The translations under genes were made by a program, and so were the position numbers. This document shows positions 1 to 39,491 of a DNA stretch of 48,626 nt, piece after piece. Location of the stretch: assembly GCA_023129235.1 (NCBI GenBank), contig JAGMCN010000013.1, forward strand, positions 1 to 48,626, in the 5' to 3' direction. Source of the DNA: a candidate division WOR-3 bacterium. GTDB lineage: Bacteria; Hydrothermota; UBA3073; JACQXS01. A model generated the notes under the pieces. It saw only the letters and a program-made list of their open reading frames with translations, did not search any database and was not told the origin of the DNA. Each line of letters starts with the position of its first letter. Positions within the stretch are counted from its first letter, which is position 1.

Positions 1-1089
1 TGGTTCCAGCACTCATTTTTGCTTTCAATGACTAATGAGGAGAAATCTTGCTTTAAGTCTGTTCTTACTCATGGGCTTATTCTTGATAAGGAAATGAAGA
101 AAATGTCCAAATCGCTTGGGAATGTCATATCTCCGATGGGCATAATTGAGAAACAAGGGGCAGATATTTTGAGACTTTATTTCTCGGCACTTGATTATAC
201 CTGCGATGTGCCATTTGACCCCGATGGACTTGAATCAGCTGTCACAGCTTACCGAAGAATTCGCAATACATTTAAGTTCTTGCTCGGCAACCTTTATGAT
301 TTTGAAACAAAACTCCCTTACGATGAATTGCTTGAGCTTGACAGGTTAATGTTACACAGACTTGCATTACTTACAAAAAAGGTCAACCTTGCTTATGAAA
401 ACTTTGAATTCTATAAAGTTTATCATAGTATCTACAACTACTGCACGCTTGATTTATCAAAATTTTATCTTGATATATTGAAGGACCGACTTTATACTTA
501 TGGCAAGAATTCTTTGGAGCGAAGAAGCGCCCAAACAACATTATATGAAATTCTATTGGCTCTTGTGAAACTTGTAGCACCTATAATTCCTTTTACCGCA
601 GAGGAAGTTTGGCAACATATAACTCTCAACTCGCAACTCATAACTCATAACTCAAAGAGTGTGCATCTTGAGTTACTCCCTGAAGCCAATCTTGAATGGA
701 TAGACGAAAAACTTGCCAAAGACTATGAGCTGATAGAAGCTATACGGGATGATATTCTTCTTGCACTTGAATCTGCAAGGAACAAAAAACTCATCGGAAA
801 TACACTTAAGGCAAAAGTAACGTTATGGACTAAGGATAAAAGCACGAGGGACTTTCTTCAGCAGAAACTGCCGAACTTACCGAATATTTTCATTGTCTCG
901 CAGGTAAATATTGATAAAGTCCCGGAGATGTCACACCTCAAGAAAGTAGATGCATTTATTGATAAAGCAGAAGGTGAACGATGTGAGCGATGCTGGATAT
1001 GGTCTAAAGATATCGGACTATCTTCAGAACACCCAACACTTTGTCCCAAGTGTATAAATGTATTAAAGGAGGATAATTATGAATGCTAA
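1..1089 (+). CDS. ileS: Isoleucyl-tRNA synthetase, C-terminal part (5' end lies outside the window)
   Basis: The frame is open from base 1. It has the KMSKS motif (KKMSKSLGN), anticodon-binding-type sequence and a C-terminal zinc knuckle (CERCW...CPKC). The classic ileS-lspA neighbourhood is present. Confidence 0.95.
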   Translation, partial: WFQHSFLLSMTNEEKSCFKSVLTHGLILDKEMKKMSKSLGNVISPMGIIEKQGADILRLYFSALDYTCDVPFDPDGLESAVTAYRRIRNTFKFLLGNLYDFETKLPYDELLELDRLMLHRLALLTKKVNLAYENFEFYKVYHSIYNYCTLDLSKFYLDILKDRLYTYGKNSLERRSAQTTLYEILLALVKLVAPIIPFTAEEVWQHITLNSQLITHNSKSVHLELLPEANLEWIDEKLAKDYELIEAIRDDILLALESARNKKLIGNTLKAKVTLWTKDKSTRDFLQQKLPNLPNIFIVSQVNIDKVPEMSHLKKVDAFIDKAEGERCERCWIWSKDIGLSSEHPTLCPKCINVLKEDNYEC

Positions 1090-1438
1090 AAAACTTGAAT
1101 ATTTTAAGAAACTCCTGCTTGCAAAAAAAAAGGAACTTGAAGATGAATTGGGTGAGCTTGAAGTGAAATTTAATGTCTCGCAACAAGACTCTTCCTCCGA
1201 CCTCTCTTCTCATCCAACGCATGTGGCTGATATTAGCGGAGATGCAGAAGATAGGGAATCTCGCTCTTGTTTAATCACTTCAATGGTTGAAGAACTTGCT
1301 CAAGTCAACCGTGCTATTAAAAAAATATATTCTGACTCCTATGGGATTTGCGAAAAGTGTAACTCCAAAATATCGCCGAAAAGGCTTGAGGCAATCCCTT
1401 ATGCAGAACTTTGTATTAAATGTGGAAAAAATTCTTAA
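1079..1438 (+). CDS. DksA/TraR-family C4 zinc-finger protein
   Basis: 119 aa with a charged helical N-terminus and C-terminal CEKC-N17-CIKC. It overlaps the ileS stop by 11 nt. Confidence 0.8.
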   Translation: MNAKKLEYFKKLLLAKKKELEDELGELEVKFNVSQQDSSSDLSSHPTHVADISGDAEDRESRSCLITSMVEELAQVNRAIKKIYSDSYGICEKCNSKISPKRLEAIPYAELCIKCGKNS

Positions 1439-1872
1439 CGCTTTTGCACGGCATTCTGCGAACCAGAATCTTCTGGATAAGTCTAATTGTCCTTGTTGCA
1501 GACCAATTAACGAAATTCTGGGTTTGGAAAACCAACGCAAATGTGTCAGTTATTGGAGATTTTCTGAGAATTACTACCACTCAAAATCCTTATGGAATTT
1601 TTGGGCTCCGTTATAAAATCCCTATTCTCCCAATTACCGGCCTTGCGATTTGTGCAATCTTTATAATATTATATAAATCTAAACTGCTTCCGCTTTCTCT
1701 GATATTAGGAGGAGCAATTGGAAATTTTATAGACCGTATAAGAATCGGTGCGGTTATAGACTGGATTGATATTGGGGTAAATAACACCAGATGGTATGTC
1801 TTTAATATTGCAGATGCAAGCATAACTATTGGAATCCTCTGGCTCATCCTCAAGGAAATAAAAAGAAAGTGA
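1420..1872 (+). CDS. lspA: Lipoprotein signal peptidase (signal peptidase II)
   Basis: 150 aa with 4 TM segments. Conserved LTK, GGAIGNFIDR and FNIADASI motifs are present. Confidence 0.9.
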   Translation: MWKKFLTLLHGILRTRIFWISLIVLVADQLTKFWVWKTNANVSVIGDFLRITTTQNPYGIFGLRYKIPILPITGLAICAIFIILYKSKLLPLSLILGGAIGNFIDRIRIGAVIDWIDIGVNNTRWYVFNIADASITIGILWLILKEIKRK

Positions 1873-1897
1873 AAAATTCTAAAATGGATTTAGAAAT

Positions 1898-1989
1898 AAC
1901 CACAAAGGCTCAAAGACTCAAAGGTCACAAAGTTTCTAAAAATTATTTTTCGTTCTTTGTGTTCTTCGTGCCTCTGTGTCTTTGTGGTT
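1898..1989. repeat. Imperfect palindromic word-repeat element (AACCACAAAG ... CTTTGTGGTT termini)
   Basis: Left arm is aaccacaaag gctcaaag actcaaag gtcacaaag. Right arm is ctttgtg ttcttcgtg cctctgtgt ctttgtggtt. The 10-nt termini are perfectly complementary. Confidence 0.7.
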
Positions 1990-2018
1990 AAAATTTGTAG
2001 TTTAATCAGGAGGATATT

Positions 2019-3707
2019 ATGATGGTAATGCGTAAATTGAGAAAAAAGATGAGAGTATTTCTTTGGTTTGCTATCGTTGTATTTGTAGCTGGAATGACTG
2101 CTATGATGGTGGGGGACGGAGGACGAAAACCTACTCCAACAGAACAAGGAAAAGTTGGTGAAATTTACATAAAACCTACTTCTGCTTGGCAGAAAATTAA
2201 GAGCTGGACCCGCAAAGAGAAAATACCTCTTTCTTATCGGGACTACTCAAATCTTCTTGAACACTACAAGAAACAGGGAATCCCAGCCTGGAAATGCAAG
2301 AACCTTGCTTTCAGCACGCTCGTAGAAGAAGTTTTAGTAACTCAGGAAATGAAAAAGAGAGGAATTGAACTTACAGATGAAGAAGTTGTTGAAATCATTA
2401 AAAATAATCCACCACCTGAATTATTACAGGATACTCTTCTCCTCACAAATGGTGAGTTTGATTATAATAAATACCTCGCTATTATATCTGACCCATCGAA
2501 CATTAGATGGCTCCAGTCTTATGAACTTCTGATAAGAAGTCAGGTGCCAAGAGAAATCCTATATCAAACTATAACATCAGCGGCAAGACCTACAACCATT
2601 GACCTTATTGAAGCTTATGCTCATTCCCACTTGAAACTTACACTGGAATACGCATTAATCCCCAATCCCCAATCCCCAATCTCCAATCCCGAGTTACTGG
2701 AATATTACAATACTCATCAGGATGAATTTATGCTTCAAGAGGAGCCAATTATAAATTATGTTGTCTTTCAAGTCCCAATATCCGCAGAAGATGAAGATTA
2801 CACAAAAGAAATTGCTCAGGAGATTGCAGATTTTGCTCAGGAAGGTGCTTCCCTTGATAGCTTGGCAATAGAATACGGCTGTCAAATCATACAAACTCAT
2901 TCACGATTCACGATACAGGGTTCACGATTCACGAAAAAAGACGATGGATACCATATAATAAAGGAAGAGAAAGAATTGATTTTACCTATCCGACCGTCTG
3001 ATGAAAGCTTCGTTCTCACAGAAGATAAAGCATCCGATTTTATATCTGCCGCTAAATCTGATTTCCTCTCCACCGCAAAATCTTATGATTTAGAAGTCCA
3101 TAAAGGTACGATTTCCGAACTGCCTATCCCTGCTGACCTCTCTTACATTAACCTTGCTGAAAAAGATAAAATTATAGGTCCCATTGAAGGACATAATTGC
3201 TTTTATGTCCTTCATACTCTTGGAATACAAGAATCTCCTGTTCCGGAATTCTCTACCCTATCCGATAAAGTGCGAGATAAATATTATCGCTCCAAGGCAC
3301 AAGAACTTGCCCAAAAACTACTTGACAAAATAACGGGTAGGTTGAAGCCCTCGCTTCAACCTTTTAGGGAAGTCTTACAAGCTAACGGATTTCCTGTTGA
3401 AACCCGGGAATTTTCGGTAGGGGCGATTTATGAATCGCCCTTGTTCGCAGAATCCCGTGGACAGGAGATTTTCCTCAAAGCTTCAAATCTTCCCGAGAAC
3501 GAGACTGGAATTGTGTCAACCGAAGATGGCATTTATCTCGTTCACTGCTTAAAGCACGAAAAACCAGTTCAAGAAGAAATTGAAAAAGCTATCCCTGAAG
3601 TGTATCCCGACTGGATAAAAGAGGAAAAGGAAATGATTTACGAAGAGTGGCTTGCGAACCTAAAAACATCTGCAGACATAAAAGACTACCGATACAAAAT
3701 CCACTAA
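2019..3707 (+). CDS. PpiD/SurA-N-like periplasmic chaperone, membrane anchored
   Basis: 562 aa. The N-terminus (MRKLRKKMRVFLWFAIVVFVAG) is a signal anchor typical of PpiD-like proteins. An AGGAGGA RBS lies 4-7 nt upstream. Two nucleotide-repeat insertions sit inside the gene (see findings). Confidence 0.5.
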   Translation: MMVMRKLRKKMRVFLWFAIVVFVAGMTAMMVGDGGRKPTPTEQGKVGEIYIKPTSAWQKIKSWTRKEKIPLSYRDYSNLLEHYKKQGIPAWKCKNLAFSTLVEEVLVTQEMKKRGIELTDEEVVEIIKNNPPPELLQDTLLLTNGEFDYNKYLAIISDPSNIRWLQSYELLIRSQVPREILYQTITSAARPTTIDLIEAYAHSHLKLTLEYALIPNPQSPISNPELLEYYNTHQDEFMLQEEPIINYVVFQVPISAEDEDYTKEIAQEIADFAQEGASLDSLAIEYGCQIIQTHSRFTIQGSRFTKKDDGYHIIKEEKELILPIRPSDESFVLTEDKASDFISAAKSDFLSTAKSYDLEVHKGTISELPIPADLSYINLAEKDKIIGPIEGHNCFYVLHTLGIQESPVPEFSTLSDKVRDKYYRSKAQELAQKLLDKITGRLKPSLQPFREVLQANGFPVETREFSVGAIYESPLFAESRGQEIFLKASNLPENETGIVSTEDGIYLVHCLKHEKPVQEEIEKAIPEVYPDWIKEEKEMIYEEWLANLKTSADIKDYRYKIH

Positions 3708-3734
3708 CCCCGCTCAGGATAGCATTAAATCCTT

Positions 3735-3848
3735 AATCTGTAATCTACGTCCGCGTCCATCTGCGTTATCTGCGGGGAAAGAAAAGCTTTTTATCTTTGT
3801 GCGCTTTGTGGTTTAAAAATATTATATCTGTAAAATCTGTGGTTGCGG
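3735..3848. repeat. Word-repeat array (ATCTG/GCGT words, two ...GTGGTT ends)
   Basis: Sequence reads aatctgtaatctacgtccgcgtccatctgcgttatctgcgg ... ctttgtgcgctttgtggtt ... atctgtaaaatctgtggtt. It is the reverse-orientation vocabulary of the 39317-39429 element. Confidence 0.5.
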
Positions 3849-3855
3849 TTTTTTC

Positions 3856-3883
3856 TTGACTTTATTTTGAAGCATCTTAAAAT
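3856..3883 (+). promoter_or_regulatory. Putative sigma70 promoter for serS (TTGACT-16-TAAAAT)
   Basis: -35 at 3856-3861 and -10 at 3878-3883, about 50 nt upstream of the serS ATG. Confidence 0.4.
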
Positions 3884-3933
3884 CTATGCCAACACGCAAA
3901 CACTGGCAATCGGATTAAACGGATTCAACTGAT

Positions 3934-5190
3934 ATGTTTGATATAAAATTTATAAGAGAGAATATAGAGCTCATTAATCGTGGCATCAAAGAAAAGGGCG
4001 AAAGTGTTGACATCAATAAATTTATTAAACTTGATGAGAAAAGAAGAAAACTCATAGGAGAAATAGATGATATAAGGAGAGAGAAGAAAAAACTCTCTCA
4101 AGATGTAGCTCAGCTCAAAAGAGATGATAAGGATGCCTCTCGGTTGATTGGCGATTCAAAATCCTTGTCAGAGAAGGAGAAAAAGCTGGATAACGAGCTG
4201 CAAGATATTAACTCAGGCATTCAGGAGATAATGGCAGGCATACCGAATTTAGCACACCCAGATATTCCTCGCGACAAGGAAACTGTGGCGCAGGAGTATG
4301 GAGAGCCGAAAGAGTTTGACTTCAAACCTCTCGCGGCAGAGAAGCTTTGTGATTCACTTGGGATACTTGATTTTGCTCGTGGTAGCAAAATAGCCGGCAC
4401 GAACTTTCCTTGCTACCTGGGACTTGGTGCAAGACTTGAGAGGGCATTTATTAACTTTATGATTGATTTGCATACAAAACAGGGATATACAGAAGTATTT
4501 CCGCCATTTCTTGCGAATCGGAAATCGATGTTCGGGACAGCTCAACTGCCAAAGCTTGAAGACGATATGTATTTTATCCCCCGAGAGGAGCTTTTTCTAA
4601 ACCCAACCGCAGAAGTTCCACTTGTAAATTTGCACCAAGACGAGACTTTGAAAGCAGAAAAGCTACCGATTAAGTATGTTGGATATGCCGCCAGCTTTAG
4701 AAGAGAAGCAGGTTCCTATGGCAAGGAGACACGGGGATTGAGGAGAGTTCATCAATTCAATAAGGTGGAACTTATAAAATTCACATCGCCCAAGAATTCT
4801 TACGAGGAACTTGAGTCAATGCTGAAGGATGCAGAGGAGGTTCTGAAGCTGCTTGGGCTCAGGTATCGTGTGCTGCTTCTTCCCGTGAAGGACTTGAGTT
4901 TTGCATCAGCCAAGACATACGACATAGAAGTCTGGGCTTCTGCAAGTCAGGAGTGGCTTGAAGTGTCTTCTGTAAGTAATTGCGAGAGTTTTCAAGCACG
5001 GCGAGCAGGGATTAGATTTAAAGAAAAAGGCAAATCCTCAAAAGAATTTGTTCATATTTTAAATGGTTCAGGAGTAGCAACCCCACGTACATTTATTGCC
5101 TTGATAGAGCAATATCAAGAAAAGGACGGGAGCATCAAGTTGCCAGATGTCCTCATCCCGTATATGGGCGGGATAGATAAAATCAAGTAA
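3934..5190 (+). CDS. serS: Seryl-tRNA synthetase
   Basis: 418 aa with an N-terminal coiled-coil arm and a class II core (FRREAGSYGKETRGLRRVHQF, GSGVATPR). Confidence 0.95.
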   Translation: MFDIKFIRENIELINRGIKEKGESVDINKFIKLDEKRRKLIGEIDDIRREKKKLSQDVAQLKRDDKDASRLIGDSKSLSEKEKKLDNELQDINSGIQEIMAGIPNLAHPDIPRDKETVAQEYGEPKEFDFKPLAAEKLCDSLGILDFARGSKIAGTNFPCYLGLGARLERAFINFMIDLHTKQGYTEVFPPFLANRKSMFGTAQLPKLEDDMYFIPREELFLNPTAEVPLVNLHQDETLKAEKLPIKYVGYAASFRREAGSYGKETRGLRRVHQFNKVELIKFTSPKNSYEELESMLKDAEEVLKLLGLRYRVLLLPVKDLSFASAKTYDIEVWASASQEWLEVSSVSNCESFQARRAGIRFKEKGKSSKEFVHILNGSGVATPRTFIALIEQYQEKDGSIKLPDVLIPYMGGIDKIK

Positions 5191-5210
5191 TGGAGAGAAA
5201 GGAGGGAAAA

Positions 5211-5699
5211 ATGAAGAAGTTTAGTGCTATGCTATTATATGTTACTCTTACTTCTTCTTTGACTTATGCGCAGAGTAGCGTCACAGATAATCCCATTGTG
5301 GGGCCGAATCAAATAGTTATTACTGGTGGGTTTATGGTAGCAAACTCCTTGATTGGCGGAGAGGCAGAACTTTGTCTTAACAACCGTTTAGGCATTGAGT
5401 TAGGAGTAGGATTTATAGGGGCAGGCGGAGGGGTTAATCTTCATCTCTACACCACAGAGAAAGACGATTATTACTTTAATTTGGAAGGAAAGTATATGCC
5501 TGTCCTTGGTTTTTTACCTGCAATTGAGTTCGGAGCAAGGTCATTCTTTGGTGAATCAAAAAAATTTGGATTAGGAGCAGAAATTGGAATAGGAATTCAT
5601 ACATCGGAAAGCAGCTTTACGGTGGGTTCTCAAACATATGAATTTCACAAAGGAGATTCTATGTTGACATATTCTTTGGGATTGGTTGTTAATCTTTAA
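5211..5699 (+). CDS. Small secreted / outer-membrane beta-barrel-like hypothetical protein
   Basis: Start moved to the ATG at 5211, which follows AAGGAGGGA. It has a signal peptide (MKKFSAMLLYVTLTSSLTYAQ) and a Gly-rich alternating pattern. Confidence 0.45.
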   Translation: MKKFSAMLLYVTLTSSLTYAQSSVTDNPIVGPNQIVITGGFMVANSLIGGEAELCLNNRLGIELGVGFIGAGGGVNLHLYTTEKDDYYFNLEGKYMPVLGFLPAIEFGARSFFGESKKFGLGAEIGIGIHTSESSFTVGSQTYEFHKGDSMLTYSLGLVVNL

Positions 5700-5710
5700 T
5701 ATAAAAACTA

Positions 5711-6424
5711 ATGGAGAGAAAAGATAAGCGAGCATCAGATGAGCTGAGACCAGTAAAAATAGAGAAGGATTATCTTCGGCATCCCGAAGGAAGCTGTCTT
5801 ATTGAGCTTGGCAGGACTCAAGTTATATGCTCGGCTACTGTTGAAGAAAGGGTCCCTTTTTTTCTGAGAGACAAGCGGTGCGGGTGGGTAACTGCGGAAT
5901 ATGGAATGCTTCCACGAAGCACAAAAGAGAGAATTCAGAGGAACCGCACATCCGGCAGGATTTATGAGATTCAGAGAATTATTGGCAGGGTTCTTCGGAA
6001 TGTAACAGACCTTGATTTTATGCCGGGGTTCACGATTGCAATAGATTGTGATGTTATTCAAGCAGACGGAGGGACACGAACTGCCGCAATAACTGGCGGA
6101 TATGTGGCTCTTTACGATGCCTGCCAATATATGTTGTCTCAAGGGTTAATTGACCATTCGCCAATCCGGGAAGCAGTGGCTGCTGTGAGTTGCGGCATAG
6201 TTAATGGAACTCCAATTCTTGACCTTGCTTACGAGGAAGACTCGCGTGCAGATGTAGATATGAATGTCTCTATGACAGAGTCTGGCAAGTTTGTTGAAAT
6301 TCAAGGAACTGGAGAAGGAAACGCTTTTACTCGCGAGGAACTTGACGCAATGCTAAAACTCGCAGACAAAGGAATAAACGAATTAATCTCAGCCCAGAGG
6401 GAAGCACTTTTTTTGAAGCTATAG
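5711..6424 (+). CDS. rph: Ribonuclease PH
   Basis: 237 aa with RASDELRPV, EGSCLIELG, and DCDVIQADGGTRTAAITG motifs. Confidence 0.95.
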   Translation: MERKDKRASDELRPVKIEKDYLRHPEGSCLIELGRTQVICSATVEERVPFFLRDKRCGWVTAEYGMLPRSTKERIQRNRTSGRIYEIQRIIGRVLRNVTDLDFMPGFTIAIDCDVIQADGGTRTAAITGGYVALYDACQYMLSQGLIDHSPIREAVAAVSCGIVNGTPILDLAYEEDSRADVDMNVSMTESGKFVEIQGTGEGNAFTREELDAMLKLADKGINELISAQREALFLKL

Positions 6425-6428
6425 AGAG

Positions 6429-6821
6429 ATGAAAGAATATACTTCTGCTGGACTAAAGGCTAAACTCCCAAAGATTGAATGCTTCCCCAGTCAATTCAGA
6501 GATTATGAAATTACACATATCATTCCTGAGTTCACTTCACTGTGCCCAAAAACAGGTCTCCCGGACTTTGGAACCATAACCATAAAATACATTCCAGACA
6601 AATTATGCATAGAGCTTAAGTCCCTTAAGCTATATATAGGAGCTTATCGGAATCTCGGCATCTTTTACGAGAACTCAGTGAATCAAATCTTGAAAGATAT
6701 AATTAAAGCATCCAAGCCCATTAAAGCAGAAATAACAGGTGAATTTAACCCCCGTGGCGGAATCAAGTCCGTTGTCCGAGCAACTTACCCAGATAAAAAA
6801 ATCTTGCCCATTTTACAGTAG
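6429..6821 (+). CDS. queF: NADPH-dependent 7-cyano-7-deazaguanine (preQ0) reductase, type I
   Basis: 130 aa with EFTSLCPKTGLPDFG (catalytic Cys) and the IELKSLKLY motif. Confidence 0.9.
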   Translation: MKEYTSAGLKAKLPKIECFPSQFRDYEITHIIPEFTSLCPKTGLPDFGTITIKYIPDKLCIELKSLKLYIGAYRNLGIFYENSVNQILKDIIKASKPIKAEITGEFNPRGGIKSVVRATYPDKKILPILQ

Positions 6822-6867
6822 TAACAAGAGCTTACTTAAATACTTTTCGGTTTTTTAAATTTTTTCC

Positions 6868-6895
6868 TTGACAGATTTAAATTTGGCAGTATTTT
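6868..6895 (+). promoter_or_regulatory. Putative sigma70 promoter of the TetR gene (TTGACA-16-TATTTT)
   Basis: -35 at 6868-6873 and -10 at 6890-6895, immediately followed by the palindrome at 6901-6925. Confidence 0.4.
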
Positions 6896-6900
6896 ATTAT

Positions 6901-6925
6901 TAGACTATTAAACTATTTTAGTCTA
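6901..6925. promoter_or_regulatory. Candidate TetR operator 1 (TAGAC-N15-GTCTA)
   Basis: Inverted repeat tagac-tattaaactatttta-gtcta. The arms and spacing are the same as the site at 7538-7564. Confidence 0.55.
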
Positions 6926-6926
6926 T

Positions 6927-7523
6927 ATGTCTAATAGCAAGGAAAGGATGAAAGAAGATAGAAAAGAGGGTATTATTGAGACTGCGCGAGATCTTTTTGC
7001 ACGATTCGGTTTCAAGAAGACTACCGTTGACGATATTGCCAGAGCTATCCACATGGGGAAAAGCACAATCTACTATTACTTTGAAACCAAAGAGGATATT
7101 TTTAAGGCAGTGATAGAAAGGGAGAGCAAATTCTTAGCTATGAAAATCAAGAAAGCTGTAGACAAAGTAACTTCTCCTGTGGAAAAACTGCGGGTATTTA
7201 TACTAACAAGGATGCAGTGTCTCAAGCAGTTGGCTAATTTTTACAGTGTACTTAAAGATGAATATTTAGAGCATTACCCGTTTATTGAGAAAGTAAGGAA
7301 GAAAGACTTTGAAGAAGAAATTGAAACTATAAAAACCTTTCTAAAAGAAGGAGTGGAAAAGGGTATTTTTGCTATCAAAAACCCACGATTGACTTCCTTT
7401 GCAATTGTTACCGCCTTAAAAGGATTAGAGTATCCTTTGACAATAGAAACCAAAACGGCAGATATCAAAAGAAACGTTAATATCTTATTAGAGACTCTAT
7501 TTAACGGGGTAAAAAAGAGATAA
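6927..7523 (+). CDS. TetR/AcrR-family transcriptional regulator
   Basis: N-terminal HTH (FGFKKTTVDDIARAIHMGKSTIYYYF). The ATG at 6948, preceded by GGAAAGG, may be the real start. Confidence 0.9.
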   Translation: MSNSKERMKEDRKEGIIETARDLFARFGFKKTTVDDIARAIHMGKSTIYYYFETKEDIFKAVIERESKFLAMKIKKAVDKVTSPVEKLRVFILTRMQCLKQLANFYSVLKDEYLEHYPFIEKVRKKDFEEEIETIKTFLKEGVEKGIFAIKNPRLTSFAIVTALKGLEYPLTIETKTADIKRNVNILLETLFNGVKKR

Positions 7524-7537
7524 ATTTTTTGTCAAAA

Positions 7538-7564
7538 TTAGACCCAAAAACCAATATGGTCTAA
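7538..7564. promoter_or_regulatory. Candidate TetR operator 2 (TTAGAC-N15-GTCTAA)
   Basis: Perfect 6-bp arms, 22 nt upstream of the radical SAM ATG. It overlaps plausible promoter hexamers (TTGTCA at 7529-7534, CAATAT at 7552-7557). Confidence 0.6.
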
Positions 7565-7585
7565 TAATCTATAAGGAGGTGTGTT

Positions 7586-9016
7586 ATGGTTGAGGTGAAG
7601 GATTTGGGTGCAAAAGCACTTAAGGGAGTTGCGAGTACCGCGGTTCGGAGCAGTACAATTAGAAAGCTTGCACTCAAAAAGATTGAGAGTGAGATGTATA
7701 AATCGATTACCTTGAAAAGAGCGGATACTTATCCTCCCAAGCAGATACAAGATGTGTTCTGTATGGGAGATGCTTTGCTTCACTCGGCGGATAGGTCTAT
7801 GTCTTGTAATATTTCTTCCGGATGTAGGAATGCCATTATAAATATTTTAGCAAAGGATATACTTACGGGTGGAGATATTAAGACGAAGGAAAAATTTGAG
7901 AGTGAATTTGGATTTATACCTCCGTTATTTCTTACCATAAGTCCAAGTAATGCCTGTAATCTGAGGTGTAAGGGCTGTTATGCCAATGCTGGAGTCCAAA
8001 GTGCTGATAAACTTACTTTTGATGTGTTTGACCGAATTATACAAGAGACAAGAGAACTCTGGGGTTCTCATTTTGCGGTCATATCGGGTGGAGAGCCACT
8101 TCTTTATAAAGGAATCTTTGAGATAGCAGAAAAACACAAAGATACATTCTTTTTGATGTATACAAATGGGACTCTTATTGATGAGAAGGTTGCAAGGAGA
8201 CTTGCGGAAGTAGGTAATGTTACTCCTGCTATTTCTGTTGAAGGATTTGAAAAGGAGACAGATGCACGAAGAGGAAAAGGCGTTTATAAGCGTATTCGGA
8301 AGGCAATGCAAAACTTGAAAGATGCTGGAGTTCCTTTTGGGTTATCTATCACCGCAACAAAACAAAATGTAGATATAATAACAAGCGATGAGTTTTATGA
8401 TTTCTATTTTGAAAAAGAACCTAAAGCGACTTATGGCTGGATATTTCATTATATGCCAATAGGCAGAAGTTATACAATTGAGCTTATGCCAACTCCGGAA
8501 CAAAGACTTCTTATGTGGGAGAAGAATAGGGAAATGGTGAGAAAACAAAAGATTCTTATTGCGGACTTCTGGAATGATGGGGTCGTCTCAAATGGATGCA
8601 TATCAGCAGGTAGGACAGGAGGATATTTTTACATAAATTGGAATGGAGATTGTACTCCTTGTGTTTTCCAACCTTACGCTGTTCACAATATCAATAAGGT
8701 TTATAAGAATGGTGGCAATCTGAATACCGTTCTGAATTCTGAGTTCTTCAAGGCAATACGAAAGTGGCAAAATGAATATGGTTATGGGCAACCGAAGGAT
8801 AAAAAAGAAAATCTCTTAAGACCCTGTGCTATTAGAGACCATTATGGAACATATCATAAACTTTTAGAATGTTACAAACCTTATCCTATCGATAAGAGTG
8901 CCCGAGATGCCTTGAATGATGAGGAATATCGCAAGAAACTCACAGCATACGGAGAAAAGATAGGAGAATTAACAAAGGATATCTGGGAAAAAGAGTATTT
9001 GCAAAGTGGAAGATAA
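7586..9016 (+). CDS. Radical SAM protein with about 110-aa N-terminal extension and Cys-rich SPASM/twitch-like C-terminal region
   Basis: CX3CX2C (CNLRCKGCYA), ISGGEPLL, and later Cys residues (NGCISAG, GDCTPCVF, RPCAIRDH). An AAGGAGG RBS lies 6 nt upstream. Confidence 0.85.
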   Translation: MVEVKDLGAKALKGVASTAVRSSTIRKLALKKIESEMYKSITLKRADTYPPKQIQDVFCMGDALLHSADRSMSCNISSGCRNAIINILAKDILTGGDIKTKEKFESEFGFIPPLFLTISPSNACNLRCKGCYANAGVQSADKLTFDVFDRIIQETRELWGSHFAVISGGEPLLYKGIFEIAEKHKDTFFLMYTNGTLIDEKVARRLAEVGNVTPAISVEGFEKETDARRGKGVYKRIRKAMQNLKDAGVPFGLSITATKQNVDIITSDEFYDFYFEKEPKATYGWIFHYMPIGRSYTIELMPTPEQRLLMWEKNREMVRKQKILIADFWNDGVVSNGCISAGRTGGYFYINWNGDCTPCVFQPYAVHNINKVYKNGGNLNTVLNSEFFKAIRKWQNEYGYGQPKDKKENLLRPCAIRDHYGTYHKLLECYKPYPIDKSARDALNDEEYRKKLTAYGEKIGELTKDIWEKEYLQSGR

Positions 9017-9019
9017 GAA

Positions 9020-9682
9020 ATGAGAGCTTCAAGAAAGTTATTTATTCTCTTTTTCTTTGGTGTGGCAATGGCATTTGTGGAAGCGGCAGTGGTCGTCTAT
9101 CTCAGAGAACTTTACTATCCTGAAGGTTTTTCGCTTCAGCTTAAAGCAATACCCCGAGATATTTTTGCCGTAGAACTGGGTAGAGAGTTTTCAACCATAA
9201 TAATGTTAGTTGCCATAGGGGTAATTGCTGGAAGAAATTTTATAGAGCGGTTTTCTTATTTCATTTTTTGCTTTGGTGTATGGGACATCTTTTATTACAT
9301 CTTTCTGAAGCAAACATTGAATTGGCCAGAATCATTACTGGCATGGGATATTCTATTTCTTATACCCGTTCCCTGGATTGCTCCTGTTTTAGCACCTGTG
9401 CTTGTTGCTCTCACAATGGTGATAATTGCAATAATATCGGTCTTGAAGATGGAGAAGGGTTATGAGTTAAAATTCTTGAAATCAGACTGGATATTGGGTT
9501 TTATCGCAACTCTGATTATTTTTGTGTCATTTATCCTATACCTTCCGAGAAGCCAGAAGTTATTTTATCCATATCATTGGGAACTCTTTATAGCAGGTAA
9601 AGTTGTGGGTATTTTCTCTTTCTGTCGGGTTTTAAAACGGGCAAGTAATAAATACCATTTAGAGAAAGGAGAATCCATATAA
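9020..9682 (+). CDS. Polytopic integral membrane protein, unknown function
   Basis: 220 aa with about 6 hydrophobic segments. It starts 3 nt after the radical SAM stop. Confidence 0.6.
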   Translation: MRASRKLFILFFFGVAMAFVEAAVVVYLRELYYPEGFSLQLKAIPRDIFAVELGREFSTIIMLVAIGVIAGRNFIERFSYFIFCFGVWDIFYYIFLKQTLNWPESLLAWDILFLIPVPWIAPVLAPVLVALTMVIIAIISVLKMEKGYELKFLKSDWILGFIATLIIFVSFILYLPRSQKLFYPYHWELFIAGKVVGIFSFCRVLKRASNKYHLEKGESI

Positions 9683-9709
9683 AATCAAATACCTTTGCCT
9701 GAGGCGAAA

Positions 9710-10351
9710 ATGCTTTACTCAATCATACATTCAATCCTAAGAGTTATCTTAGCAGTCTATATTAGATTAGGAACTGTTGGGCTTGAGAATATTCCGAAAC
9801 AGGGTGGTGTAATTCTGGCACCGAACCATCCCAGTGACTCGGATTCATTTATCCTGGGAACTGCAATTAGAAGGCAACTTCATACAATGGGTAAAGAAGA
9901 ACTATTCAGAAAACGTTTCACAGAATTTATTTTTAGAAAATTGAACGCTTTTCCTGTAAAAAGGGGAAGAGTTGATAGAGAAGCTATACGAACTGCTGTT
10001 AGTGTTCTCAAAGAGGGACATATAATTGATATGTATCCTGAAGGAACAGTAAGTAAAGATAGTTTTTTGCAGGAGCCAAAATTAGGAACAGCATTTGTTG
10101 CCTTGCAAGCAAAAACACCTGTTGTTCCGGTAGCAATGATAGGCACTTTCAATGTTATGTCAAAGGGACAAAAATTTCCCCGACCACATAAAGTAATCAT
10201 CAGATTTGGCAAACCGCTCTATTTTGACGAATACTATGATAAATCTTACAACAAAGAAATATTGAAGATTGTAACTAAACAAATAATGAGCGAGATAAAA
10301 AGACTATTGAACTCGAATGCCTTGGAGGAGACACACTATGTCAGCACTTGA
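9710..10351 (+). CDS. PlsC-family lysophospholipid (1-acyl-sn-glycerol-3-phosphate) acyltransferase
   Basis: HX4D motif (NHPSDSD), FPVKRG and YPEGT blocks. The ATG at 9710 is preferred over the TTG at 9695. Confidence 0.85.
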   Translation: MLYSIIHSILRVILAVYIRLGTVGLENIPKQGGVILAPNHPSDSDSFILGTAIRRQLHTMGKEELFRKRFTEFIFRKLNAFPVKRGRVDREAIRTAVSVLKEGHIIDMYPEGTVSKDSFLQEPKLGTAFVALQAKTPVVPVAMIGTFNVMSKGQKFPRPHKVIIRFGKPLYFDEYYDKSYNKEILKIVTKQIMSEIKRLLNSNALEETHYVST

Positions 10352-10580
10352 AAGAGTAAAAAAGGTTATTGTAGAAGTGCTGGGCATAAAAGAGGCAGAA
10401 ATTTTCCCAGAAACTTCTTTTACGGATAATTTGGGAGCAGATAGTCTTGATTATGTTGTACTACTTCAAGCACTTGAAGTAGAGTTTAATATTCAGATTC
10501 CAGACTCAGATACCGAAAAACTTCAAACTGTAGAGGATGCTGTGAAATATATAGAGAGTAAAACTTTAAGCATCAAGTAA
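10338..10580 (+). CDS. Acyl carrier protein (copy 1)
   Basis: 80 aa with the LGADSLD phosphopantetheine-attachment motif. A GGAGGAG RBS lies 7 nt upstream. It overlaps the acyltransferase stop. Confidence 0.85.
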   Translation: MSALERVKKVIVEVLGIKEAEIFPETSFTDNLGADSLDYVVLLQALEVEFNIQIPDSDTEKLQTVEDAVKYIESKTLSIK

Positions 10581-10584
10581 AGTG

Positions 10585-10830
10585 ATGAAATTGACAATGT
10601 ATGAGAGAGTGAAGAGAATTGTTATCAAATACACAAATATACCTGAAGAACGGATTACACCGGAAGCATCTTTTACCGATGATTTGGGAGTGGACTCATC
10701 CGATATTACTGGACTCATTATGAATATTGAAGACGAGTTCGGCATCGATGTCCTTGATACCGTGGAAAGACTCAGGACAGTGGGAGATGTGGTGGAGCAT
10801 CTCCGTGCAAGGTTGCCAGTAAATGAATAA
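10585..10830 (+). CDS. Acyl carrier protein (copy 2, DSS variant)
   Basis: 81 aa with the LGVDSSD motif. It is only weakly similar to copy 1. Confidence 0.8.
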   Translation: MKLTMYERVKRIVIKYTNIPEERITPEASFTDDLGVDSSDITGLIMNIEDEFGIDVLDTVERLRTVGDVVEHLRARLPVNE

Positions 10831-10869: not shown

Positions 10870-12018
10870 TTAAAAGCAATAAGAGAATATAGTTTCTGCA
10901 TCCTCGGCGTCAAGTGTCTTTAAACTGCCCAAAGGAGACATACGCATTGACATTTCTGCGAGAACGGGTATTTCCTCTTCTTTTATGCCAAAGTCTTTAA
11001 ACGAGCTTTCTAATCCTATAGAGTTGAACCACTCTTTTAATTTCTGTATTCCTGCATCTGGATTGTCTATGCCCCATATTTTTTGAGAAAATCTGGTTAT
11101 CTTGTGTTCTATGTACGGCATCATATATTTAAGCCAAGCAGGGAAAATTATTGCAAGTCCTGCACCATGTGCAATCTCTGGATGAATACCACTTAAAGAA
11201 TGTTCTAACATATGGCTTGACCAATCTCCCGGTCCCCTGCCTATTCCGTTCACTCCATTGAGTGCAAACAATGCAGACAATATAACTTGGGCTCGTGCGT
11301 GATAATCATCTGGGTTTTTAATCAGTGTCGGAGTAAAGGAAATCACTGTTCTTAAAATCCCTTCAGAAAACTCATCTTGCAATTCCGTTTCCTCCTCGCC
11401 ACAGAAATACAACTCAAAAATATGGGCAATAATATCAGAAGCACCCGCTGAAGTCTGATAACTTGGGAGCGTAAATTGCAATACAGGGTCAAGTATAGAT
11501 GCTCTGGGATAAACCGCAGTAGATGTAAAATAAAACTTCTCTCTTGTGTCTTCGTTTGTTACAACCGTTGAGGGATTCATTTCGGAGCCAGTTGCAGATA
11601 GAGTTAGCACAATAAATATAGGCAATGCTTTCTCCACTCGTGCCTTGCGTTGAAAGACTTGCCAGAAATCACCATCAAAAAATACGCCTCCAGCAATCGC
11701 TTTTACGCTATCTACTACACTGCCACCACCAACTGCAAGGATAGCCCCTACGCCCTCTTTTTTGCATATTTCAATCCCCTCAAGCACCTTTGAGAAAACA
11801 GGATTTGGTCTTATCCCGCTTAATTCTACATATTGAATATTCTCCTTGTGTAGAGAAGTTACTACTTTATCGTATGTGCCTGTGTTTTTTATGCTGCCCT
11901 GCCCATAGGCAAGTAGCACTTTATTGTATCCGGCAGATTTAATTTCCTTGCCAATCTCAAGCACTTTGCCTTTGCCAAAGACAATCTTTGTAGGATTATG
12001 AAATACAAAATCTTTCAT
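10870..12018 (-). CDS. Iron-containing (group III) alcohol dehydrogenase, BdhA/YqhD-like
   Basis: The N-terminus MKDFVFHNPTKIVFGKGK fits the family. GGGSVVD and His-rich metal motifs (HIFE, HMLEH, AHGAG) are present. The 45-aa TTG-initiated extension in the ORF track was dropped. Confidence 0.85.
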   Translation of the reverse strand: MKDFVFHNPTKIVFGKGKVLEIGKEIKSAGYNKVLLAYGQGSIKNTGTYDKVVTSLHKENIQYVELSGIRPNPVFSKVLEGIEICKKEGVGAILAVGGGSVVDSVKAIAGGVFFDGDFWQVFQRKARVEKALPIFIVLTLSATGSEMNPSTVVTNEDTREKFYFTSTAVYPRASILDPVLQFTLPSYQTSAGASDIIAHIFELYFCGEEETELQDEFSEGILRTVISFTPTLIKNPDDYHARAQVILSALFALNGVNGIGRGPGDWSSHMLEHSLSGIHPEIAHGAGLAIIFPAWLKYMMPYIEHKITRFSQKIWGIDNPDAGIQKLKEWFNSIGLESSFKDFGIKEEEIPVLAEMSMRMSPLGSLKTLDAEDAETIFSYCF

Positions 12019-16368: not shown

Positions 16369-16509
16369 AACCACAAAGAAATGATTAAATAAAATGCCAC
16401 GAAATCACCAAATCACAAAACTACACAAAAGAATTATATTATATAACTTTGGTGGAATTTAGCGTCTTAGTGTTTTCGTGGCAAATTAATCTTTGTGCCC
16501 TTTGTGGTT
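16369..16509. repeat. 141-bp imperfect palindromic word-repeat element (AACCACAAAG ... CTTTGTGGTT)
   Basis: Three complementary block pairs: aaccacaaag/ctttgtggtt, gccacgaaa/tttcgtggc, caccaaa/tttggtg. Confidence 0.7.
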
Positions 16510-16515
16510 AAAGCA

Positions 16516-18900
16516 ATGGAGCATATTTTTCCGCATATTAGAAAACCCTTAAGGTATATAGGAAACGAGATTGGGGCAGTGCATAAAGATTGGACCAAAA
16601 CTCCTGTTAAATTTGCTCTTTCCTATCCGGACTTGTATGAACTTGGGATGAGTTGTCTTGGGGTGAGAATAATCTACTCGCTCTTAAATTCAAGAGGAGA
16701 TACGCTTTGTGAGCGAGTCTTTGCCCCAGCTCTTGACCTTGAAGAAGCACTGCTGAAGACAGATACTCCTCTTTTTTCTATGGAATCCGGCAACCCATTA
16801 AAGAAATTTGATTGCATTGGCTTTTCTTTGCAATATGAACTTACATTTACTAATGCCTTAAATATACTAAAGCTCTCGCAAGTCCCTATTCATAGAGAAG
16901 AGCGAGGCGAGACTGACCCTCTTATTATTGCTGGTGGGAGTTGCACCTCAAATCCAGCACCAATAGCAAGGTTCTTTGATTGCCTCTTTATAGGAGAAGC
17001 CGAACATTCGCTGCCAAAATTTATAGACCTTGTGCGAGAGCGGAAAAGCAAAAAACTAACTCGGCAGGAGCTACTTAAAGAAGCATCCCGGATACGAGGA
17101 ATCTTTGTTCCCGGGATTAGCAAAAAGGCAACTCGTGGCTTTTATGAGGAGCTACTGGATGACTTCGTCATCGGGGGGGCAATTCTCCCTTTTGTAGAAA
17201 TTACGCGTGATTCTCTCGTAGTTGAAATTGCAAGAGGGTGCACTCGTGGATGCAGATTCTGTCAAGCTGGTATGATTTCAAGACCTTACAAAGAAAGGCA
17301 AGCAAAGCAGGTGATAGAGATTGTTAAGGCGGGAATCAAGGAGACGGGCTATAGCACTGCCTCGCTTCTTTCTCTTTCTGCAAGCGACCATTCTGAACTG
17401 ATTCCAATAATTCAGGGAATTCGCAGACAGGGAATAGGAGTTTCACTTCCCTCACTTCGTGGAGATGCACTAACGGCTGAGCTTGCAAAATTGATAGGAA
17501 AAGGTGGAATAACTATTGCCCCTGAAACTGGGACCGAAAGGTTGAGAGGAAAAATAAATAAGCCAATATCTGACGACAAGATTTTAAATTCCTGCGAGAT
17601 TGCGGCTCGCAATGGCTTTACTCATATCAAATTATACTACATAATTGGACTGCCGGGAGAAACACAGCAAGACATAGATGGAATAGTGAACCTTACCCAC
17701 CGTATATCAAAGGTGATGAAAGGAAAGCGGATAAATGTAGCTCTTTCTCCTTTTGTCCCAAGACCCCATACGCCGTTTCAATGGGAAGCCCAAGAACGAG
17801 ATGAGGAGGTGGAACACAAAATACAATATATCAAGAACAAGCTACGACACGGGAATATGAGAGTAAAACATAGAAATCCCTTGATGGCTACGCTTGAAGG
17901 AATATTCGCAAGAGGAGACGAGAAAATAGCAGAGGCAATAGAAGTGGCGTGGGAAAATGGAGCAAAGTTCGATGGATGGGGCGACCAGTTTAACTTTAGC
18001 CATTGGGAGAAAGCGTTTCAGAAGCTTGATATAAATCCTTCCGCTTATTTAGGCAGGCGAGAGATAAAGTCTCCTCTCTCGTGGGATTTGATAGATGTGG
18101 GAGTTAAAAAAGACTGGCTAAAGGAGGAAGGGCAGAAGCAGGAACCAACTTTAGATTGCCGAATTGCAGGGTGTTATGAGTGTGGAGCTTGCAAGTCTCC
18201 TAATCCCGTGCCTATGCGTAGGGATGAGAGCGTTTTGACCTTGTCCCCACGGGATATAAGCTATGGAAGACCTCCAAAACGCAAAACATCAACTTATGTT
18301 AAGTTAAGATTTAGAGTAAGGTTTGAGAAGGCAGAGCCCTTGAGATTCTTGGGACACCTTGACCTTGTAAAGGCAATCACTCGGGCATTCAGGAGAGCAG
18401 ATATTCCAATTGTATATTCTCAAGGATTCACCAGGCGACCCAGCATTTCATTTTCTCCACCACTTCCGTTTGGGATAACGAGTAAGGAGGAATATTTTGA
18501 CATCTGGCTTGAATCACCTCCCCGCGAGGACATTAAGCTCTTGCTCAACCAGACTCTCCCCAAGGGACTTAAGGCATTACAAGTAACTTCAATATTAAAA
18601 AGCACTCCTTCTTTGTTTGAGGAGCTCAAGAAATGTAAATACAGGGTAGCCGATATAAGTGTGTCGGATGTCTTGAAAAGAATACAAGAATTTATGTCAA
18701 AGAAAGAAGTGTTGGTGCGAGAGATAAATATTCGCCCTGCGGTGATTGATATAGAGGAAGAAACGGCATTCGCAAACAGGAGTTTGCTCCTACATATGCA
18801 AATTGGGAAAGTAAAGCCCTGGTGGGTTATCGAATCCTTGCTTGGAATCTCTGAGGATAAGGCACTTGAGTTTAAAATAGAGAGGGTAGGGTATTGCTAA
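16516..18900 (+). CDS. B12-binding-like radical SAM protein fused to a DUF2344-type domain (TIGR03960 + TIGR03936 architecture)
   Basis: VEIARGCTRGCRFCQAG cluster motif. The C-terminal 200 aa (FLGHLDLVKAITRAFRRADIPIVYSQGFTRRPSISF) matches DUF2344. The ATG at 16516 is preferred because the upstream GTG lies inside the repeat. Confidence 0.85.
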   Translation: MEHIFPHIRKPLRYIGNEIGAVHKDWTKTPVKFALSYPDLYELGMSCLGVRIIYSLLNSRGDTLCERVFAPALDLEEALLKTDTPLFSMESGNPLKKFDCIGFSLQYELTFTNALNILKLSQVPIHREERGETDPLIIAGGSCTSNPAPIARFFDCLFIGEAEHSLPKFIDLVRERKSKKLTRQELLKEASRIRGIFVPGISKKATRGFYEELLDDFVIGGAILPFVEITRDSLVVEIARGCTRGCRFCQAGMISRPYKERQAKQVIEIVKAGIKETGYSTASLLSLSASDHSELIPIIQGIRRQGIGVSLPSLRGDALTAELAKLIGKGGITIAPETGTERLRGKINKPISDDKILNSCEIAARNGFTHIKLYYIIGLPGETQQDIDGIVNLTHRISKVMKGKRINVALSPFVPRPHTPFQWEAQERDEEVEHKIQYIKNKLRHGNMRVKHRNPLMATLEGIFARGDEKIAEAIEVAWENGAKFDGWGDQFNFSHWEKAFQKLDINPSAYLGRREIKSPLSWDLIDVGVKKDWLKEEGQKQEPTLDCRIAGCYECGACKSPNPVPMRRDESVLTLSPRDISYGRPPKRKTSTYVKLRFRVRFEKAEPLRFLGHLDLVKAITRAFRRADIPIVYSQGFTRRPSISFSPPLPFGITSKEEYFDIWLESPPREDIKLLLNQTLPKGLKALQVTSILKSTPSLFEELKKCKYRVADISVSDVLKRIQEFMSKKEVLVREINIRPAVIDIEEETAFANRSLLLHMQIGKVKPWWVIESLLGISEDKALEFKIERVGYC

Positions 18901-22260: not shown

Positions 22261-22338
22261 CAGAGGACACGGAAAAGATTAGCACACAGATTCACACAGT
22301 TTGGGAGTTTAAGGAGTTGAGGAGTTAGGGAGTTAGAG
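22261..22338. repeat. Partial left-arm element with 19-mer core followed by an (RGGAGTTR)x4 octamer array
   Basis: Sequence reads gacacggaaaagattagcacacagattcacacag, then ggagttta aggagttg aggagtta gggagtta gag. The last unit overlaps the gpsA stop codon. Confidence 0.55.
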
Positions 22339-39429: not shown

Positions 39430-39491
39430 TTTGCATTTTTCACTTGACAAAACGGGAGTTTTAGCACATATAATATACAATGGAGGTGGTT

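Follow-up and report, generated by a model that had tools for sequence, protein, structure and literature searches.

What might an enzyme of the radical S-adenosylmethionine (SAM) type do when its gene stands behind that of a TetR-family regulator and is followed by genes for a membrane protein, a glycerolipid acyltransferase and two acyl carrier proteins (ACPs)? This question is raised by a locus of a candidate division WOR-3 bacterium (GenBank assembly GCA_023129235.1, contig JAGMCN010000013.1, positions 1 to 48,626; this whole stretch of 48,626 nt is hereafter the window). A first-pass annotation, made from the DNA alone, had described the locus as a regulated lipid-tailoring operon whose radical SAM enzyme, here rSAM, might form C-C bonds in acyl or glycerolipid substrates. 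Altogether, our analysis argues that this lipid hypothesis is correct in kind: judged by its sequence, rSAM is a homologue of Mss, the enzyme of bacterial membrane-spanning lipid formation, and belongs to a family already known. The new details of the locus are a probable TetR operator and a variable set of accessory lipid genes, and the comparisons below make it likely, in our judgment, that we are dealing with a TetR-controlled operon having the Mss-family enzyme as its core and PlsC and the ACPs in accessory roles.

On the plus strand, tetR (6927-7523; 198 aa; Pfam TetR_N, E=9.8e-17) precedes rSAM (7586-9016; 476 aa; Pfam Radical_SAM and SPASM), a membrane protein of an uncharacterised family with six helices in its AlphaFold2 (AF2) model (9020-9682; 220 aa), a PlsC/LPLAT-family acyltransferase (9695-10351; 218 aa; PF01553, E=2.9e-26), ACP1 (10317-10580; 87 aa; DSL motif; PP-binding, E=1.8e-13) and ACP2 (10582-10830; 82 aa; DSS motif; PP-binding, E=1.6e-12). 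All six open reading frames (ORFs) of the annotation, with five packed genes behind the regulator, were thus recovered at their positions. The tetR and rSAM genes are 62 nt apart, and 8 nt before its ATG rSAM has a strong AGGAGG; 3 nt separate rSAM from the membrane protein gene, 12 nt the latter from the PlsC gene, and 1 nt ACP1 from ACP2. The PlsC and ACP1 frames overlap by 35 nt, or by 14 nt if ACP1 begins at the internal ATG at 10338, which is its likely start. Ketosynthase, reductase and dehydratase genes, held to be missing by the annotation, were found neither in the operon nor among the window ORFs of at least 110 aa scanned against Pfam.

The evidence that carries the family assignment comes from Mss of Thermotoga maritima (Tmari_0825/TM0824) and Thermoanaerobacter ethanolicus (WP_129545148.1), identified in 2022 (Sahonero-Canavesi et al., PMC13159169); expression of Tmari_0825 in Escherichia coli resulted in C32/C33 diabolic acids (PMC13159169). 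The rSAM protein is 38% identical to the T. maritima enzyme (P0241, 482 aa) over 370 aa (E=1e-84, 257 bits). Published Mss homologues were delimited by E<=1e-50 and at least 30% identity to a confirmed Mss (PMC13159169), and rSAM lies within these limits with T. maritima Mss as the sole reference. Its homology to this confirmed enzyme lends support to the lipid C-C-bond-forming radical chemistry suggested earlier, as a predicted activity. Both proteins are of nearly equal length (476 versus 482 aa) and have the CxxxCxxC motif after an N-terminal region of ~110 aa as well as three extra cysteines. In T. maritima, too, a TetR gene adjoins mss, and the WOR-3/Stahlbacteria-like host belongs to the groups, candidate phyla and FCB superphylum, from which Mss homologues have already been reported (PMC13159169). 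Unlike T. maritima Mss, rSAM belongs to a separate clade, with members ~50% identical across candidate phyla. The family counts 5692 matches, many of them ~50% identical proteins of candidate or anaerobic phyla, and two peptide patterns alone find relatives in 534 stretches of a species-representative genome collection. Moreover, rSAM is 33-44% identical to members from Thermotogae, Bacillota, Chloroflexota and gammaproteobacteria, which are 38-50% identical among themselves; on these identities the Mss family is a continuum that contains rSAM of the window.

The T. maritima reference was itself traced through plasmids. A tblastn search of plasmids led to an Escherichia albertii plasmid that encodes a 36% identical protein, and a homology search with this protein returned orthologues in essentially all Thermotogae genera at ~50% identity, among them the cluster with T. 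maritima MSB8 AAD35906.1/AGL49750.1, annotated 'AstB/chuR-related protein'. The T. maritima gene order is iron-containing alcohol dehydrogenase (Fe-ADH), PheS, PheT, TetR, a 482-aa rSAM and a 323-aa rSAM, and the Fe-ADH aligns in full length with PDB 1VLJ (870 bits). As 1VLJ is TM0820, this gene order makes the 482-aa protein TM0824. Tmari numbers equal TM numbers plus 1 at TM0785-0787, going by encapsulin 3DKT and Thi4 and their TM numbers, and AGL50099 is Tmari_1175, consistent with AGL49750 being Tmari_0825. P0241 was therefore identified as TM0824, that is Tmari_0825, the T. maritima Mss. Beside this tracing, Mss-family genes ~50% identical to Thermotoga Mss were seen to stand alone on IncF plasmids (L081 2254-3633 on E. 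albertii pEA5_1; L082 7857-9158 on Klebsiella pneumoniae pFF1023_1; L numbers are our labels for loci), and others occur in Salmonella, Edwardsiella, Klebsiella oxytoca, Photobacterium and Sodalis, beside IS66 elements and replication genes.

The architecture of rSAM was then weighed against other radical SAM enzymes. All 56 family members compared have its CxxxCxxC cysteines (C124/C128/C131) and the further C338, C359 and C414, each aligned to a cysteine of T. maritima Mss. The N-terminal extension of 110 aa, which the annotation had called unusual, turned out to be conserved family-wide, with CxxxCxxC of T. maritima Mss at nearly the same position; in the AF2 model, domain 1-108 forms five alpha-helices (predicted local distance difference test, pLDDT, 89.7). 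As for the extra C-terminal cysteines, thought to suggest auxiliary Fe-S clusters, three of them are indeed there and invariant (C338/C359/C414), but this count fits a single auxiliary cluster and not a full SPASM pair, and the Pfam SPASM match is partial (positions 5-56 of 67, 25 bits). Since only three extra cysteines are invariant, we read them as one Twitch/partial-SPASM auxiliary cluster, not as the two of a seven-Cys SPASM domain.

For the core and the C-terminal Fe-S part, the best PDB and structural matches are the SPASM/Twitch maturases SkfB, SuiB and CteB together with anSME, the best PDB sequence match being SkfB (57 bits, E=1e-14), and the top NCBIfam matches are NirJ2, MftC and AhbD. 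These matches would speak for a SPASM/Twitch maturase outside lipid chemistry, with a ribosomal peptide, heme d1 or heme b (as for NirJ/AhbD) or mycofactocin as its target. We looked for such clustering with peptide or cofactor maturases, and all NCBIfam models scored far under their cut-offs (NirJ2 95 versus 500 bits, AhbD 76 versus 500, NirJ 75 versus 515), the structural matches were core-only with a template modelling (TM) score of only ~0.5, and the similarity to confirmed Mss is far stronger. Unlike SkfB, SuiB, CteB and anSME, rSAM has neither the recognition element (RRE) of enzymes for peptides synthesized ribosomally and modified post-translationally (RiPPs) nor the full seven-Cys SPASM motif; its N-terminal domain is modelled as five helices and not as an RRE fold. 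Neighbours resembling RiPP biosynthesis genes were not found with Pfam or NCBIfam, small precursor-peptide ORFs not having been searched for. The five-helix N-terminus and the three extra cysteines thus speak against both a typical RiPP maturase and a SPASM enzyme with its full two clusters, and we ruled out a RiPP or cofactor maturase on the RRE absence and the scores far under cut-offs; a non-lipid maturase of any kind appears highly improbable to us.

A second kinship brought up by the annotation, that with the archaeal tetraether enzymes Tes/GDGT-MAS (Methanocaldococcus jannaschii MJ0619, PDB 7TOL/7TOM), was of interest as these radical SAM enzymes couple lipid tails, and the MJ0619 core also starts near residue 110. 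This kinship did not hold: the phmmer match was limited to the radical SAM core (residues 115-250, E=7.6e-6), a profile of the 56 family members did not reach Tes/GDGT-MAS at 1e-5, and Foldseek comparison of the AF2 model with Tes/GDGT-MAS gave a TMq of 0.40 and a root mean square deviation of 16-17 A, at ranks 17 and 19, below peptide maturases. The GDGT-MAS structure is reported to hold two auxiliary clusters and a rubredoxin-like iron, a description with which rSAM, having only three invariant extra cysteines, disagrees. A Tes/GDGT-MAS-like identity was excluded on the core-only similarity, the profile miss and the low Foldseek TM score.

Having placed rSAM in the Mss family, we infer its substrate and product by homology with the T. 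maritima and T. ethanolicus enzymes. The [4Fe-4S]/SAM site (C124/C128/C131) would make a 5'-deoxyadenosyl radical, which would take a hydrogen from the omega or omega-1 carbon of an acyl chain already in a membrane glycerolipid. The resulting carbon radical would join the tail of a second acyl chain, at omega or omega-1, giving a diabolic-acid-type, membrane-spanning dicarboxylic lipid, and the single auxiliary Fe-S cluster (C338/C359/C414) and helical N-terminal domain may serve in electron handling and in lipid or membrane binding. Lipid data suggest that coupling takes place on preformed membrane diacylglycerolipids (PMC8788747), and Mss alone suffices in E. coli (PMC13159169); hence, we read PlsC and the two ACPs as accessory. 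They would take no part in the coupling itself; by (re)acylating lysolipids with chains from acyl-ACP, they would determine which chains are available to be coupled. Patatin lipases, LpxL-type acyltransferases and glycosyltransferases of family 4 (GT4) may take an analogous accessory role in sister loci, whose MMPL, LolA-like and DUF1302-like genes could form an export branch that is missing from the window.

The annotation had called the operon regulated, and this gained support from a palindrome confined to two promoter-proximal sites of the window, both putative operators. The first candidate (TTAGAC...GTCTAA, 6900-6934, +) overlaps the tetR start codon, in a region where an inverted repeat was also detected independently, and lies just downstream of a promoter-like site upstream of tetR (TTGACA-16-TATTTT, 6868-6895, +; 10/12 matches in a consensus scan), the position of which is only suggestive. 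The second (TTAGACC-N13-GGTCTAA, 7538-7564, +) precedes the rSAM start by 22 nt. TTAGAC-N(5-30)-GTCTAA occurs exactly twice in the 48.6 kb, with 0.05 expected, and none of 100 shuffles gave two. Candidate operator 1 is kept upstream of tetR in L001 and L006, and candidate operator 2 at the equivalent place in L001 and L002. Thus, the palindrome is a probable TetR operator, as read from the DNA, and its placement and conservation, together with the TetR gene beside T. maritima Mss, fit TetR autoregulation and operon repression: TetR would probably repress its own gene and the operon via the two palindromes, and a lipid-like ligand would release it. NCBIfam gave only weak FadR-like and other matches to TetR, all under cut-off. 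Similarity between the TetR proteins of the window and of T. maritima is confined to the helix-turn-helix, so we do not claim orthology.

The acyltransferase and the ACPs were characterized from their translations. The former holds the HX4D motif as HPSDSD, and YPEGT; PF01553, HPSDSD and PEGT confirm the glycerolipid acyltransferase with HX4D of the annotation. Its AGP_acyltrn score (TIGR00530, 86.9 bits) lies under the 102.95-bit cut-off, and it also resembles, in NCBIfam, the acyltransferase domain of Aas-type acyl-ACP:lysophospholipid acyltransferases. With HX4D and PEGT in a 218-aa protein and two ACPs directly 3', it recalls the Aas/PlsC lysophospholipid acyltransferases (E. coli Aas, AGPAT); unlike these, it scores under the curated cut-offs and is without an acyl-ACP synthetase domain. 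ACP1 passes TIGR00517 (90.9 bits, cut-off 70.45) and carries GADSLD; ACP2 passes NF002148 (75 bits, cut-off 71) and carries GVDSSD. The annotation was therefore right in counting two ACPs, both of which pass the PP-binding and DSx serine motif tests. Unlike the T. maritima mss locus, the window thus has a PlsC-type acyltransferase, two ACPs and a membrane protein beside the enzyme; 'acyl carrier' and 'acyltransferase' are absent as terms from the Mss paper (PMC13159169), and the pairing of PlsC with a radical SAM lipid synthase, of which there is no mention in the cited Mss literature, is a new context.

How far this context is shared was followed in 160 related loci, 80 from genomes (ORF clustering; 76 carry the anchor ORF) and 80 from metagenomes (tblastn). 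In the 76, neighbours were counted if they lay on the same strand and no more than 3 kb away; in the 80 metagenome loci, tblastn matches within 4 kb were counted. None of the 160 holds all five genes, so that the five-gene set is not conserved and its arrangement is strain-specific rather than a conserved system. What recurs is a set of lipid genes in changing combinations, given here as genome and metagenome counts: TetR (16-18/76 and 4/80), phasin/BMFP-like proteins (16/76 and 11/80), patatins (11/76 and 21/80), GT4 (7/76 and 12/80), ABC1/UbiB kinases (6/76 and 14/80), MMPL (5/76 and 1/80), PlsC (5/76 and 1/80), B12-radical SAM proteins (5/76 and 1/80) and LpxL-like acyltransferases (3/76 and 2/80). 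The gene order is TetR-rSAM-rSAM-PlsC-ACP-ACP-MMPL-LolA-like in L002, TetR-PlsC-ACP-rSAM-LpxL-like followed further on by MMPL-LolA-like-DUF1302-like in L006, rSAM-membrane protein-LpxL-like-GT4-MMPL in L161, and phasin-like-patatin-rSAM-GT4-patatin in other members of at least 70% identity. The Mss-family enzyme is consistently set among genes of lipid hydrolysis, acylation, glycosylation and transport, and which accessory genes go with it varies even from strain to strain. Hence, of the co-occurrence with acyltransferase and ACP genes on which the annotation had made its proposal depend, little is left for the module, the linkage being rare, and the enzyme itself is not touched.

Such variation between strains is seen in L001, the nearest relative of the window (97% identical). 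L001 is colinear with window positions 1-9006 and resumes at ACP2, which alone of the four downstream genes is kept there (86% identity). After ACP2, L001 continues with MMPL, a secreted protein of the type IX secretion system (T9SS) type, a LolA-like protein and a DUF1302-like barrel, whereas the window, from which the MMPL, LolA-like and DUF1302-like genes are absent, has a convergent Fe-ADH at this place. PlsC orthologues of 77-78% identity adjoin rSAM in L002 and L006. A second indel relative to L001 covers 0.5 kb (window 5204-5705), where a 169-aa protein (5190-5699) with a signal-peptide-like N-terminus gave no Pfam match.

Several observations weigh against an operon with an Mss-type core and accessory lipid genes. 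Concerning the enzyme, 38% identity is no guarantee of the same reaction or regiochemistry, and the lineage is uncultured and known here from its genes. In the metagenome-assembled genome (MAG) of L001 the family has a second paralogue (L037, 50% identity), and in several other MAGs there are two or three, which leaves room for functional divergence; moreover, in candidate phyla a related SPASM/Twitch lipid enzyme, Gms, considered here from its published description, reportedly clusters with mss (PMC11214058). Concerning the accessory genes, PlsC is near rSAM in ~6 of the 160 loci (near 4%), an ACP lies within 1 kb in 4 of the 160 (L001, L002, L006 and, distantly, L038), and L001, with DNA of 93-97% identity, is without 9007-10586 (1.58 kb: membrane protein, PlsC and ACP1); the PlsC/ACP link may be functionally unconnected to Mss. 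Concerning regulation, promoter-like sites in the region are no more frequent than in shuffled sequence, and the putative operator role of the palindrome is read from position and conservation only.

The paralogues give room for another reading of the enzyme, in which rSAM would be a diverged Mss relative with other lipid radical chemistry (Gms-like bridging, cyclisation or coupling at another position) and the second paralogue the true synthase. Besides the multiple copies per MAG and the reported clustering of Gms homologues with mss, tandem copies in L002 and L033 agree with it, as do the neighbourhood types peculiar to the clade of at least 70% identity. Nevertheless, identity to T. maritima Mss is no lower in the window clade (37-41%) than in the mainstream clade of candidate phyla (35-40%), rSAM has the three auxiliary cysteines and the overall architecture in common with T. 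maritima Mss, and the second rSAM in L003a and L015 is only 25-31% identical and resembles TM0825, not the window protein. We therefore judge such divergence rather unlikely. TM0825 is a second, distinct SPASM radical SAM gene directly upstream of T. maritima mss (L083 4948-5919), 30-34% identical to the rSAM genes directly upstream of Mss-family genes in L003 (6457-7932) and L015 (6562-8004), and this type of gene could correspond to the Gms-like partner known from published work.

The clean presence or absence of the 1.58-kb segment in otherwise 93-97% identical DNA raises a different doubt, namely that PlsC, the ACPs and the membrane protein are ordinary or unrelated genes inserted strain-specifically, with co-transcription as their only link to rSAM. 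The canonical AcpP-type score of ACP1 goes in the same direction, and so does the full five-gene set being found in no related locus. Against such an insertion, PlsC stands beside rSAM in three gene orders within the close clade (window, L002 and L006), distant PlsC proteins (27-30% identity) adjoin rSAM in L012 and L033, an LpxL-type acyltransferase often replaces an absent PlsC at the same position (L003, L006, L009, L161 and L162), and the genes of the window are translationally coupled or overlapping. On balance, a mere insertion is an explanation to be taken seriously, albeit one we hold to be unlikely.

Two distinct ACPs and an acyl-ACP-type acyltransferase directly downstream of rSAM in one operon could also be taken to mean that coupling is carrier-tethered: each ACP would present an acyl chain, rSAM would produce an ACP-diabolyl-ACP bis-thioester, and PlsC would load it onto lysolipids. 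The order rSAM-PlsC-ACP-ACP recurs in L002, with TetR-PlsC-ACP-rSAM in L006, and one ACP is still beside rSAM in L001. However, confirmed Mss enzymes act alone in E. coli, T. maritima lipid data indicate coupling on preformed membrane lipids, the four loci with a nearby ACP are few and L001 and L006 have a single one, and neither the operon nor its sister loci showed a gene for an acyl-ACP synthetase or a phosphopantetheinyl transferase. With ACPs so rarely linked to the enzyme, carrier-tethered coupling seems quite improbable. Should it nonetheless hold, against our expectation, it would be a second way for bacteria to reach membrane-spanning lipids, from soluble precursors and controlled by TetR, in which a PlsC/LpxL-type enzyme would put the diacid on a glycerolipid or glycolipid and, in sister loci, MMPL/LolA-like/DUF1302-like proteins would export it to the outer membrane. 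We thus retain the operon with an Mss-family core and accessory PlsC and ACPs, for which we infer the accessory roles and the TetR regulation from gene context.

The membrane protein had been described in the annotation as a six-transmembrane protein of unknown family, and this was borne out by the lack of any Pfam or NCBIfam match and by an AF2 model with six helices and a beta-hairpin (pLDDT 87). Its fold found no match in the PDB with Foldseek (best E 0.5), and its 4862 homologues are all unnamed, including Ignavibacterium album IALB_0278. The family conserves polar residues, among them E21, R29, E52, R55-E56, W88-D89, K97 and D110, which suggests an enzyme or a transporter. It lies near rSAM in 2 of the 160 loci (L161, directly after rSAM, and L056) and is absent from L001, L002 and L006. 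Among three contexts of homologues, one is patatin-PAP2-X, one adjoins Lnt and one is uninformative, a mixed picture that is often lipid-related; Pfam, NCBIfam, AF2 with Foldseek against the PDB and these three genomic contexts yielded no functional assignment. A radical SAM gene beside a membrane-protein homologue in L086 falls outside the Mss family and was set aside.

Branched glycerol dialkyl glycerol tetraethers (GDGTs), widely used palaeoclimate proxies, are presumed to derive from membrane-spanning diabolic-acid lipids, and which organisms make the latter, and how, is only partly known. To our knowledge, the substrates, partners and regulation of Mss are uncharacterised. The locus reveals no new enzyme class. 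It adds an uncultured WOR-3/Stahlbacteria-like lineage to the candidate producers of membrane-spanning lipids, and it places Mss homologues in a recurring, highly variable set of lipid genes (TetR, patatin, PlsC-/LpxL-type acyltransferases, ACPs, GT4, MMPL/LolA-like exporters, ABC1 kinases and phasin-like proteins), a context unmentioned in the cited Mss literature. These neighbours are reasonable candidates for missing accessory steps, i.e., acyl-chain supply, head-group addition and export, and the TTAGAC-N15-GTCTAA palindrome is a concrete, testable regulatory element.

Other features of the related loci deserve mention. Mss-family genes are often flanked, as in L004, L005, L012, L017, L027, L033, L059, L089-L092, L108-L112 and others, by a short coiled-coil protein, scoring at or just under the Pfam Phasin and BMFP (UbiK-like) cut-offs, along with a kinase of the ABC1/UbiB type and patatin-like lipases, one or two in number; this recurring set may mark a lipid-extraction or remodelling apparatus, of which the cited Mss literature makes no mention. 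Some family members (L008, L047 and L056) come from MAG contigs that bear the labels 'archaeon', 'Shapirobacteria' and 'Saccharibacteria'; their neighbours resemble those of other bacterial loci, so that binning or labelling errors may lie behind them. The Fe-ADH of the window (10870-12018, - strand) is 50% identical to T. maritima TM0820 (L083 11564-12751), which lies four genes from mss. Because no Fe-ADH is found near rSAM in the 160 related loci, we treat the shared proximity as a probable coincidence and rejected a functional link of Fe-ADH to Mss.

The weak linkage that the annotation had ascribed to the Fe-ADH and glycosyltransferase-like neighbours agrees with their place in an opposite-strand gene run with rluD. 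The gpsA gene that it had noted is present (22333-23301), 11 kb off and amid housekeeping genes. No terminator-like site was found 3' of ACP2, and Rfam and tRNA scans of the window gave no matches. The remaining scanned ORFs of the window are mostly housekeeping (IleRS, DksA-type, LspA, SerRS, RNase PH, QueF and RluD, with gpsA, dnaA, ribosomal proteins and Dxs besides), and none of those scanned against Pfam has a fatty-acid-synthesis domain. From dnaA at 23676-24989, the window is probably close to a replication origin. Two more radical SAM genes, neither adjoining the operon, encode an 801-aa Radical_SAM_N2/B12-like and DUF2344 fusion (16495-18900) and a 308-aa radical SAM protein (35986-36912). 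The nearest public relatives of the locus are MAGs labelled WOR-3, Stahlbacteria or 'bacterium', and secreted proteins with Por_Secre_tail or FlgD-Ig C-terminal sorting domains of the T9SS type (19112-21301, 21305-22198 and 39480-41984) fit an FCB-group host.

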